This document shows positions 23,600 through 26,362 of a stretch of DNA of 64,000 nt, in pieces (position 1 is the first letter of the stretch; each line of letters opens with the position of its first letter). This stretch comes from Staphylococcus phage LY01. The notes beneath the pieces are model-generated. The model did no database searches. It was given only the letters and a program-made list of their open reading frames with translations, and had not been told where the DNA came from. The position numbers and the translations under genes were made by a program. Location of the stretch: sequence record OR836606.1, one strand, 5' to 3'.

Positions 23600-26362
23600 T
23601 TAACAAACACCATCTGATAATTTACCAATTGATATACCTTTACCATTTCTCTTTTGAGGTTTACTAACTTCATTTTTAACTTTCTTAATCTTATTTTGTC
23701 TAGTAATAATACACATGAAATCTTCATCTTTAATTAGTAATTCTTTATTATCATTTTTAAAATCAATATCAGAATACTTAGTTAATCTAGATGGTTTAAG
23801 TGTATTTTTATCTTTCTTAATTTCTTTCATTTCATTAATAATAAGGTCATTCAATTTACTTACATCTTTCATATATATCATTTCTTCATTAACAATCTTT
23901 TCTTTTTCTTTCTTTTCATCAATCAATTTATTAATTTCAAGATTATTAATTGTGTATAATTTCATTTCAGCTACATAAGAAGCTTGTGCATGAGATATAC
24001 CGAATTTCTTACTAACTACATCAATAATATCATCTTTACCTTTACCAGATTTAACTATTTTAATTAATTCATCGATATTCTTAGAATCTAATACAACTAA
24101 TAGACCTTCAATAATATGAATACGACTTCTTAGATCTTTAATTTTAAATGATTTAAAACGTTTTACGGTAGATTGTCTAAAAGAAATCCATCTATCAATA
24201 ATACCTAATAAATTAGTTTCTACTAGTTTATTATTATCTACTAATTTAACGTCAAAATTAATTCTAGAAGTAATTGTTTTAACTTTATACAATTGATTTA
24301 ATGCTAAATCTAAGTCAGAAGATTTTGTATATTGAAGAATTAAACGAACATCCCCATTTTGAGTTCCATCACTAATATTTTTAAGACCATCTAATTGTTC
24401 TTCTTTATGTGCTTCTCTTATTGCTTCTTTAACTCTAGTTAACGTAACGTTATAAGGAATTTCTTTAATTGTAAGAGTCATTTTACTCTCATCTTTTTCG
24501 ACTACAGATCTTAATAACATAGAACCTTTACCAGTACGATAACATTTCTCTAAATCATCACAGAACGCTTCTCCACCATAAGGGAATTGTGGTTTAAAGT
24601 TATTATCTTTAATAAGTGTCTTTAATTTCTTATTAGGATTTTTAATTCTATCAATAGTAATATTAATTACATCTTCAGTAGAATGTGGTGGTAAATCAGA
24701 TCTGTGCCCTCCACCACCGATGCCAAATGAACCATTAACTAATACATAGGGTAATTTAGAAGGTAATACTAAAGGCTCTAACATTGACCCATCGAAATTC
24801 TTAACCATATTAACTGCATTGTCATTAATGTTATCCAACAAGTTTCTTTCTGAGAATTTATTTAATCTCATTTCTGTATTATGATGAATAAAACCTTCAG
24901 ACATAAATGAATGATCATCCGTATCAACTTTAATAGAATAAACTACTTCTTTTTCATCTAATTCTTTAATACTTTCTACTTGTTCAAAATAAGTATAGTT
25001 ATCTAAGTATTTAGAGATAAATAACATTAAATGATCTCTATCTTCAATTTCAATACCGTATTCTTCTTTAAGTAAACTAAAGTTATTTAAGAAATTCTTT
25101 CTAGTATTGAATAGTTCTGGATATAAATAAGAAGTCATTTTTCTTTCATTCAATACTTCATCTAAATAAGGAATAATTTGATATGGATTATTACTTTCTA
25201 AATTTATATACATATCAATAACCGCATCAATTTTATCTTTAAATAAATCATCATCTTTAATTAAGTGTTTAGATAAATTCTTAAGTGAATGAATATCTTG
25301 AATTTGTAATCTATAATCAATATCACTAAATAATGATACTACAGAATAGATACCAAATTGAGATAATAATGTAGCTATTTCTTGCAAGAATCTTTTACTA
25401 TGACTTTCAATAACTAAACCAACGTTATCTACAATAAATCCATCTTGTTTAAATAACTCTAACAAGAATTCTCTCTTATACCCTAAACAAGCTTCTAATA
25501 TTTTATTAGGAAGATTTTTTCCACTTTCAATATCTTTCATTAATACACTATATTCAGGATCTAAAGTCCTATTAAAATAATTATTAGAAAGGATTTCTCC
25601 CCATTTTTTAAAACTTCCTTTTTCATTTTCATTAAGATTTTTACTTCTAAAATCTTTAAGATCATTCTTAATCATAGTTCTGTTGATTAAGTAATCTCCT
25701 TCTTTAATTTCATCCATTGTTTTCCATTTAAAATCCAATCCTTTTGTTGGATGCTTAATTACAGTTAATAAAGGATGATTTGGAGTAGCTTTAATAGTTT
25801 TACCTGCATTAGTATTTAATTCCATTACATTATGTTTACCTGAATTAAAGAATTTAATAGCTTTAACTGGTTTACGTCTAAAGTCCATAACAACTTTATT
25901 AATTACATTATCGCTATTTAATTTACTATGAGGTACTATATCTTTAATTCTTACAAGTTCTCCATTGTTCATATCGATTATATGTTCTCCAGTTAAACAA
26001 TAACGTGAAGCAGCTGCTGAAGCTCCTGTAATAGAACCAAATGCACCATGTCCTTCAATTAATGGTTGGTTCATAGAAAATGGTGTAACCATATTAACTG
26101 CAGAATCATAAATACCATCATTACTATGTGGGTGTAATATAGTTGTGTCACCAGCAATTCTGGCTGATTTGGCAAATTTCTTATCAGATCTATAACCATT
26201 TTTATACATAATATAAAGTATTTTTCTTTGAATAGGTTTCAAACCATCTCTAATATCCGGTATTTGACGATTAGTATTAATTTCATTAAAATAAATCATC
26301 ATATTATCATGAACTATTTCTTTTAAATCTTTATTAAAAACTTCTGCCATTATCTTTTTCAT
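23600..26362 (-). CDS. DNA topoisomerase II large subunit (GyrA/ParC-like, T4 gp52-like) containing an intein
   Basis: N-extein ...HGAFGSITGASAAASRY matches the GyrA ...NFGSxDGDSAAAMRY active-site region and resumes TEMRLNKF (GyrA TEIRLAKI); 920 aa, 546 aa without the intein. Confidence 0.8.
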   Translation of the reverse strand: MKKIMAEVFNKDLKEIVHDNMMIYFNEINTNRQIPDIRDGLKPIQRKILYIMYKNGYRSDKKFAKSARIAGDTTILHPHSNDGIYDSAVNMVTPFSMNQPLIEGHGAFGSITGASAAASRYCLTGEHIIDMNNGELVRIKDIVPHSKLNSDNVINKVVMDFRRKPVKAIKFFNSGKHNVMELNTNAGKTIKATPNHPLLTVIKHPTKGLDFKWKTMDEIKEGDYLINRTMIKNDLKDFRSKNLNENEKGSFKKWGEILSNNYFNRTLDPEYSVLMKDIESGKNLPNKILEACLGYKREFLLELFKQDGFIVDNVGLVIESHSKRFLQEIATLLSQFGIYSVVSLFSDIDYRLQIQDIHSLKNLSKHLIKDDDLFKDKIDAVIDMYINLESNNPYQIIPYLDEVLNERKMTSYLYPELFNTRKNFLNNFSLLKEEYGIEIEDRDHLMLFISKYLDNYTYFEQVESIKELDEKEVVYSIKVDTDDHSFMSEGFIHHNTEMRLNKFSERNLLDNINDNAVNMVKNFDGSMLEPLVLPSKLPYVLVNGSFGIGGGGHRSDLPPHSTEDVINITIDRIKNPNKKLKTLIKDNNFKPQFPYGGEAFCDDLEKCYRTGKGSMLLRSVVEKDESKMTLTIKEIPYNVTLTRVKEAIREAHKEEQLDGLKNISDGTQNGDVRLILQYTKSSDLDLALNQLYKVKTITSRINFDVKLVDNNKLVETNLLGIIDRWISFRQSTVKRFKSFKIKDLRSRIHIIEGLLVVLDSKNIDELIKIVKSGKGKDDIIDVVSKKFGISHAQASYVAEMKLYTINNLEINKLIDEKKEKEKIVNEEMIYMKDVSKLNDLIINEMKEIKKDKNTLKPSRLTKYSDIDFKNDNKELLIKDEDFMCIITRQNKIKKVKNEVSKPQKRNGKGISIGKLSDGVC
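24878..25999 (-). other. intein (374 aa) with LAGLIDADG-type homing endonuclease domain, in the topo II large subunit
   Basis: begins Cys (CLTGEHIID) right after ASRY, ends ...GFIHHN followed by Thr+1; internal LLELFKQDGFIVDN LAGLIDADG-like block; inserted next to the catalytic Tyr region. Confidence 0.75.

Follow-up and report, generated by a model that had tools for sequence, protein, structure and literature searches.

Staphylococcus phage LY01 (sequence record OR836606.1) was analyzed over a window of 64,000 nucleotides (the whole stretch of DNA considered here), with attention to its gyrA gene, to the protein insert read in frame within it, and to a second insertion located farther downstream in the same gene. 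An open reading frame (ORF) of 920 aa at 23600..26362, on the minus strand as is the whole of gyrA, reads ...GSITGASAAASRY|CLTGEHIID...SEGFIHHN|TEMRLNKF, bars marking the ends of an in-frame insert of 1122 nt, or 374 codons, at 24878-25999 (-). Reading base by base returns exactly the coordinates and the codon number of the initial annotation. Cys1 of the insert is encoded by TGT (25999-25997) and preceded by Tyr-1 (TAT, 26002-26000), Asn374 by AAT (24880-24878) and followed by Thr+1 (ACA, 24877-24875). The flanks of the insert, ...AAASRY and TEMRLNK, belong to a GyrA-type protein, and with the insert taken out the site reads ...GCAGCTTCACGTTAT|ACAGAAATGAGA... The protein is a gyrase/topoisomerase IV subunit A (GyrA/ParC-type; PF00521) with a C-terminal beta-pinwheel domain (PF03989), for which the earlier name, topoisomerase II large subunit, is loose.

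The N-extein (26000..26350 (-), 117 aa, MAEVF...AAASRY) stops where the N-terminal stretch of the PF00521 match ends, and has the start annotated in the related phages Madawaska, MarsHill and Machias. The ORF could open four codons upstream (MKKI, 26351-26362), at 26362; the MAEVF start annotated in the relatives carries an annotated ribosome-binding site, and the true start of gyrA is probably 26350. The first part of the C-extein, from Thr+1 through KLSDG and one base into the following codon (23608..24877 (-)), completes exon 1. Exon 2 (20796..21607 (-), DIPLN...IIKHS, stop included) encodes the C-terminal beta-pinwheel domain, and is set apart from exon 1 by an insertion of 2000 nt. The 374-aa insert, which has annotated counterparts at this position in Madawaska, MarsHill and Machias, corresponds to residues 118-491 of the joined 1184-aa protein.

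By all of its defining sequence features the insert is a class-1 intein, located at the catalytic-tyrosine site of GyrA and predicted to splice. Searched alone, it matches the Pfam families Intein_splicing (PF14890, E=4.3e-20) and LAGLIDADG_3 (E=1.1e-5, 26 bits), the latter at residues 174-219 and over positions 2-50 of the 82 of the profile. The whole ORF returns Intein_splicing and the partial LAGLIDADG_3 match, along with DNA_topoisoIV (PF00521, E=4e-92) in two stretches around the insert, the C-terminal one restarting at profile position 92. These values, and the topoisomerase match split around the insert, put the result far beyond chance. The split falls at ..AAASRY|C...HN|TEMR, directly after the catalytic-tyrosine motif, as had been proposed.

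The best match among all PDB sequences is the GyrA intein of Mycobacterium xenopi (Mxe; 1am2), with E=1.7e-25 for the single sequence and 9e-48 for the profile, the alignment covering intein residues 2-114 and 329-374, i.e. the N- and C-terminal splicing regions. On alignment, blocks A, B, F and G of the two inteins all correspond. Block A (CLTGEHII, 25976..25999 (-)) starts with the nucleophile Cys1, invariant in 10 phage copies and in both wider intein alignments. Block B (GKTIKATPNHPLLT, 25763..25804 (-)) holds the TxxH motif as T72-P-N-H75, TPNHPLL pairing with TANHPLL of the Mxe intein, and both H75 and P76 are invariant in the alignments. In blocks F and G (VVYSIKVDTDDHSF ... SEGFIHHN, 24878..24946 (-)) VYSIKVDTDDHSFMSEGFIHHN pairs with VYSLRVDTADHAFITNGFVSHN of the Mxe intein, and the region closes with GFIHHN|T, that is His373-Asn374 followed by Thr+1. 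The identification as an intein, initially made on Cys1, the His-Asn pair and Thr+1, stands.

Splicing residues are all invariant in the 10 phage copies, at a synonymous divergence reaching about 1. This bears on the proposal that the insert is a splicing-dead Hint domain, GyrA working, or failing, with 374 residues left in. Residues for all of the four splicing steps are present, the catalytic tyrosine would stay parted from the residue that follows it in the conserved RY|TE motif, and the exteins are strongly constrained, with ratios of non-synonymous to synonymous substitution (dN/dS) of 0.05-0.14, as expected of a gene in use. On the other side, and as a point against predicted splicing, the literature found on the intein of these phages is prediction only, with no splicing experiment or direct splicing data among it. 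We regard a splicing-dead insertion as highly improbable.

Inteins at this site form a family. HMMER was run exhaustively over 1.84 billion representative proteins, in place of a word-indexed protein search that had returned 3 matches only, and gave 356 matches at E<=1e-3; 94 of the best 150 are GyrA proteins carrying the intein in the context [AS][AS]x[RK]Y|C...HN|T[ES]x[RK]. These same-site inteins are usually 415-440 aa long, and mini forms of 150-270 aa also occur. An AlphaFold model of the phage intein was built with an alignment of 16 sequences (predicted local distance difference test, pLDDT, 85.9; predicted template modelling score, pTM, 0.89), the single-sequence run (pLDDT 35) being unusable. 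Foldseek comparison of the model to the PDB retrieves the TliVMA intein (5.6e-16), PI-PfuI, PI-PkoII, PI-SceI and the Mxe GyrA intein; PI-PfuI, PI-PkoII and PI-SceI are likewise matched in the profile search. The Hint fold of the model matches 1am2 and 4oz6 at template modelling (TM) scores of 0.82-0.86, normalised to the target.

We take the Mxe GyrA intein (1am2, 4oz6) to sit at the same place, adjoining the catalytic tyrosine, between native exteins ..MRY|TEA.., and the full-size mycobacterial GyrA inteins share this location next to the tyrosine. The splicing domains of the Mxe and phage inteins are homologous and their structures superpose, yet identity in the splicing regions is only ~35-40%, and the hosts are a bacterium and a phage, respectively. 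The Mxe intein is 198 aa long and lacks any endonuclease region, whereas the phage intein keeps a half-domain and a helical region (residues 116-332). The full-size GyrA inteins (415-440 aa; such as P0008, P0018 and P0005, of metagenomic and genomic origin) share with the phage intein the site, homology over the whole length, the second LAGLIDADG motif and a C-terminal helical region with a conserved IPY/F motif. They differ in having the first motif (..LLGalvSEG..) as well as the second (..LFEGDG..), with the first-half core in between; of these the phage intein has the second motif only.

The retained motif is FLLELFKQDGFI (block E, 25433..25468 (-)), in which Asp186 is kept. It aligns with the second LAGLIDADG motif of the full-size GyrA inteins (..FLxxLFEGDG..), is followed by the conserved K..L..Q.LLL.FGI.S helix, and starts the sole alpha-beta-beta-alpha-beta-beta-alpha unit of the model (residues 172-245). 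The first motif of the homologues (..LLGalvSEG..) aligns with the degenerate FKKWGEILSNNYF (25574..25612 (-)), where SNNY is found in place of SEG and the catalytic Glu is changed to Asn. Around this remnant, residues 116-171 are modelled as helices only, and about 70 residues of the first-half beta-sheet present in the full-size GyrA inteins are, by the alignment, absent from the phage intein. Past the single unit the model shows a helical region (252-331) common to the homologues. The LAGLIDADG_3 profile gives 44-77 bits over its whole length in full-size homologues, vs the 26 bits obtained here over the first 50 positions. Hence the block LLELFKQDGFIVDN singled out in the initial annotation does lie within the LAGLIDADG_3 match, yet it is the second motif (LLELFKQDG) and not a complete endonuclease. 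The intein derives from LAGLIDADG-type inteins, and the label describes its ancestry, not a working homing nuclease: the endonuclease half is truncated and the first catalytic motif is lost.

A monomeric LAGLIDADG enzyme requires two acidic residues and two half-saddles. Only one motif of the phage intein (FLLELFKQDG) retains the acidic residue, and only one of the two alpha-beta-beta-alpha-beta-beta-alpha half-domains that make up the DNA-binding saddle is seen; judging from alignment and model, the endonuclease is therefore probably dead. An inactive nuclease fits an intein that has reached fixation. The opposite proposal, implied in the initial annotation, is that the LAGLIDADG homing endonuclease still works and that the intein is actively invading gyrA alleles that lack it. 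The significant LAGLIDADG_3 match, the structural and profile matches to PI-PfuI, PI-PkoII and PI-SceI, and the invariance of Asp186 in 10 copies speak for it. The Gly of the retained motif, in contrast, varies among phages (QDG, QDS, HDA), and the clade offers no intein-less allele to home into; together with the lost acidic motif, the missing first-half residues and the single structural unit, this makes a working nuclease unlikely.

Selection on the remnant weighs in the same direction as these matches, and counts, with the nature of the structural evidence, against a dead nuclease. In a codon comparison of the ten phage genes the remnant shows dN/dS of ~0.19-0.30, about 0.2 and thus indicative of purifying selection; the splicing regions of the intein range over 0.07-0.35, the exteins fall below the remnant. 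The fraction of invariant positions is alike across sub-regions of the intein (0.46-0.62), the remnant being as conserved as the splicing domain. Such constraint is unlike that of a freely decaying domain, and may reflect residual activity or a structural role. Moreover, the deletion of the first half is deduced from alignment and from a predicted, not a solved, structure. Most simply, the constraint would reflect selection to keep the insert able to fold, and an essential enzyme able to splice. A more speculative one, to which we assign little probability, is that the half LAGLIDADG domain, kept under such selection in all lineages of the clade, has been co-opted, as a fold gating splicing in response to temperature or another signal, as a single-site nickase, or as a DNA-binding module; the output of GyrA in LY01 would then be set first by the splicing of the RNA of the downstream element and next by protein splicing, with maturation of TnpB/omega-RNA competing with the former.

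The intein of LY01 is shared by all of its close relatives. At the DNA level gyrA is 94% identical to the genes of S6, PALS_2, Madawaska, UFV_DC4 and MarsHill, all Staphylococcus jumbo phages, and ~83% identical to those of PB50, Machias, AH12 and SA1. The intein is present in nine out of nine, is 373-374 aa long, and varies in protein identity from 64 to 92%. An intein-free allele in related phages, looked for among these, was not found; the next-closest phage GyrA, that of Listeria phage LPJP1 (45% identity), lacks the insert. When the joined extein was compared to 50,697 phage records the nine relatives matched in two pieces, LPJP1 and all the other phage GyrA among the matches listed in one piece. 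Within this collection, therefore, the intein is confined to and fixed in this clade.

The initial annotation presented the intein as a discovery, which it is not. GenBank annotates an intein in Madawaska, MarsHill and Machias; the PB50 product is entered there as an intein-containing DNA gyrase subunit A. Korn et al. (bioRxiv 10.1101/2020.12.14.422802) placed the GyrA intein of MarsHill (gp228) between Y117 and T492, reported that the homologue of phage AR9 (gp044) has two introns and no intein, and noted that these phages plaque and propagate poorly at 37 C; the DC4 paper (PMC10638138) repeats the account of the intein. The inteins of MarsHill, Madawaska, Machias, PB50, DC4, PALS_2 and S6 share gene, insertion point (Y117/T492) and length with the LY01 copy, which differs from them by 8-36% at the protein level. 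Given its GenBank annotation and its description in two papers, both for near-identical phages, the LY01 intein is known, and ordinary. The published accounts call its LAGLIDADG domain a homing endonuclease, and are silent on the missing half.

A related GyrA was noticed in a phage-like metagenome contig of 10 kb (logan:ERR13865851_8411; L011:4593-8114, P0004). Its intein, inserted at the same site, has 364 aa and is 34% identical to that of LY01. This intein gives no LAGLIDADG_3 match at all, its motif reading IRELLDNYFCM, and nuclease decay has thus gone one step further in this sister lineage.

The gyrA gene of LY01 is split a second time, a condition found in none of the nine relatives, where gyrA is a continuous ORF of 1184 codons. 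Homology to the relatives stops at 23608 and resumes at 21607/21609, the dinucleotide TG being common to both junctions, and the reading frame of exon 1 ends two codons past the insertion point. The ORF at 20796-21617 goes on as ...DIPLNIFNANSK..., which is exactly the Madawaska reading, and encodes the beta-pinwheel repeats of the C-terminal domain of GyrA (PF03989, E=4e-25). Removal of 23607..21608 joins the two exons into 3555 nt, a length equal to that of every relative, encoding 1184 aa. The 920-aa product initially given as the precursor is accordingly exon 1 only, the gene continuing past the insertion. A split gene giving two polypeptides was considered and rejected: the break interrupts the first blade of the C-terminal pinwheel directly after the KRNGKG motif, and the downstream frame has only a TTG two codons before the junction.

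The insertion (21608..23607, on the minus, or gyrA sense, strand), IStron-like in its makeup, interrupts the first blade of the GyrA C-terminal domain and lies 1.27 kb downstream of the intein. A putative group I intron core (23141-23532 (-), full-length match to Rfam RF00028) precedes tnpB (21824-23029/23044 (-)), which encodes a protein with the Pfam domains OrfB_IS605, Cas12f1-like TNB and HTH_OrfB_IS605 and with intact RuvC-like motifs (GVDLG, LEDLD, DRDVNAA, as read from the sequence). An AU-rich inverted repeat of 31 nt, 90% complementary, encloses tnpB (21619-21649 / 23099-23129), and the 3' end reads ...AACTG. The classic group I elements GUUCAACGACUA and GAUAUAGUCU are present in the core. 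Its exact 22-nt motif GTTCAACGACTATCGAAAGCAC was found in 18 IMG/VR contigs (L013-L030), many of jumbo size (230-276 kb), surrounded by the conserved group I elements GAATTGCTGGGAA, AATCAGCAGCCAAG, GAGTAGAGTA and GATATAGTCT; the exact 5' junction of the LY01 insertion had no match in IMG/VR. Of the 15 pairs predicted in the P7/P8 region, 9 show compensatory changes when 11 related phage sequences are aligned.

Group B (IS607-type) IStrons are inserted after GG (or AG) and end with CGG (or CAG), the 5' exon not ending in U; they have a long AU-rich stem around ORF B, and variants of ~2 kb carrying ORF B only are known, some of them from phages of Clostridium botulinum (Tourasse et al. 2014, PMC4227781; Zedaveinyte et al., bioRxiv 10.1101/2023.11.20.567912). 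The LY01 insertion resembles the group B elements BcISt1, CbISt3/4 and CsISt1 in the putative 5' group I core, in the sense-strand ORF B/TnpB lying in an AU-rich inverted repeat, in a size of ~2.0 kb, in the 5' exon not ending in U, and, in principle but with other bases, in the dinucleotide shared by target and 3' end. The 5' exon ends with ..GGTG|, the element with ..AACTG|, so that the shared dinucleotide is TG (CTG), and not GG (CGG), or AG as for CAG in CsISt1. Of three possible registers of the boundary the one ending in G was adopted, following the pattern of group B IStrons and the point where homology to Machias ends; it is provisional and not proven. Further differences are the lack of TnpA, the Staphylococcus jumbo phage host, an Rfam score under the gathering value, and splicing that is predicted.

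Two results count against a self-splicing intron. The RF00028 match scores 29.9 bits vs a gathering score of 50, its E=1e-5 holding when 586 nt were searched alone (the whole window gave no Rfam match reaching the gathering threshold, and a search of 6.5 kb gave none at E<=1), and a P1/internal guide pairing, sought by eye in the insertion, was not found. Even so, we consider it quite likely that the insertion is an IS607-type (group B) IStron, predicted to be self-splicing.

The same evidence bears on whether gyrA is a pseudogene broken by the TnpB element, its intein a relic in a dead gene. The frame interrupted two codons past the insertion, and the lack of an Rfam intron at gathering threshold, would fit such a view. 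Both exons, however, are intact and together of exactly the expected length, exon 2 shows a dN/dS of 0.08 vs S6, and the insertion is on the sense strand with the end signature of IS607-type IStrons, its core giving a full-length group I match in the local search and compensatory changes in P7/P8. A dead gene is accordingly very unlikely.

Relatives of parts of the insertion, which fit the IStron reading, occur in Machias and in LPJP1. Beginning with the tnpB start codon and running through its last bases (..TAACTG), the insertion shares 87% identity with an element annotated as transposase and situated between genes in Machias (MW349128.1 272222-273668; L010:3001-4447). Since the Machias copy is intergenic and has no intron in front, homology beginning at the tnpB start codon, TnpB and intron modules appear to travel separately. 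A near-perfect hairpin (21740-21788, 24-nt arms of 88% complementarity, 1-nt loop) closely follows the tnpB stop codon, is kept in the Machias copy, and is a candidate omega-RNA scaffold stem or terminator. In the Listeria jumbo phage LPJP1 (MZ422438.1; L012:369-745) an intron core 67% identical to that of LY01 is followed by coding sequences at 892-1521, for a hypothetical protein, and 1487-2245, for an annotated IS607-family transposase; four places in this record match the whole-insertion query. This distantly related jumbo phage seems to carry IS607-type IStrons.

Taken together, a vertically inherited, clade-fixed and self-splicing class-1 GyrA intein, with a nuclease remnant that no longer supports homing and an IStron-type intron downstream, is the interpretation we hold to be likely. 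The steps that follow are drawn from established intein chemistry, and group I splicing of the RNA is likewise inferred. The LY01 mRNA would first lose the 2000-nt group I intron/TnpB element, and the GyrA precursor would be translated with the intein inside. Cys1 would undergo an N-S acyl shift, Thr+1 would attack the thioester (trans-esterification), and Asn374 would cyclise, assisted by His373; an O-N shift would then restore the ...SRY-TEMR... active-site motif, leaving a free intein of 374 aa (roughly 43 kDa) and the joined exteins. Because IStron-type insertion and intein both interrupt the gene, functional LY01 GyrA would need RNA splicing as well as protein splicing. The intein most likely no longer homes, as the first motif and the first half of the beta-sheet are lost, and would persist because its imprecise removal from an essential active site would be impossible.

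Other mobile and nuclease genes reside nearby. The HNH/NUMOD4 gene and the three TnpB genes mentioned in the initial annotation are all recognized by Pfam. The two TnpB genes outside gyrA (30341-31483 and 49102-50310 (-)) encode proteins 37% and 28% identical to the gyrA TnpB, with the same three Pfam domains. That they also lie within introns was considered and is doubtful: no flanking DNA is common with the gyrA element and the flanks are separate ORFs only, which suggests intergenic sites. Upstream of gyrA on the coding strand are a SNase-like gene (27368-27799 (-), 1.5e-8) and a homing-endonuclease-like HNH_3/NUMOD4 gene (28168-28530 (-)), both found also in the relatives.

What is added to the known intein is only the half-deleted nuclease, the two-exon gene model, the naming of the protein as subunit A, and the presence within gyrA of an IStron-type element. 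The corrected model of LY01 gyrA is that of two exons plus an intein, and not of a 920-aa ORF. The LY01 intein is homologous to the Mxe GyrA intein, which is in wide use, and comes from an AT-rich, low-temperature phage; it could be of practical interest if it spliced well at low temperature. The probable IStron in gyrA is a modest new instance; the LY01 insertion and the intron-less Machias copy form a natural pair in which the combining of TnpB modules with group I introns can be studied. What the literature calls a LAGLIDADG homing endonuclease in this clade is half a domain, which fits a fixed intein that has lost homing while its remnant is still constrained, and in LY01 one essential phage gene carries both an intein and an IStron-type intron/TnpB element.

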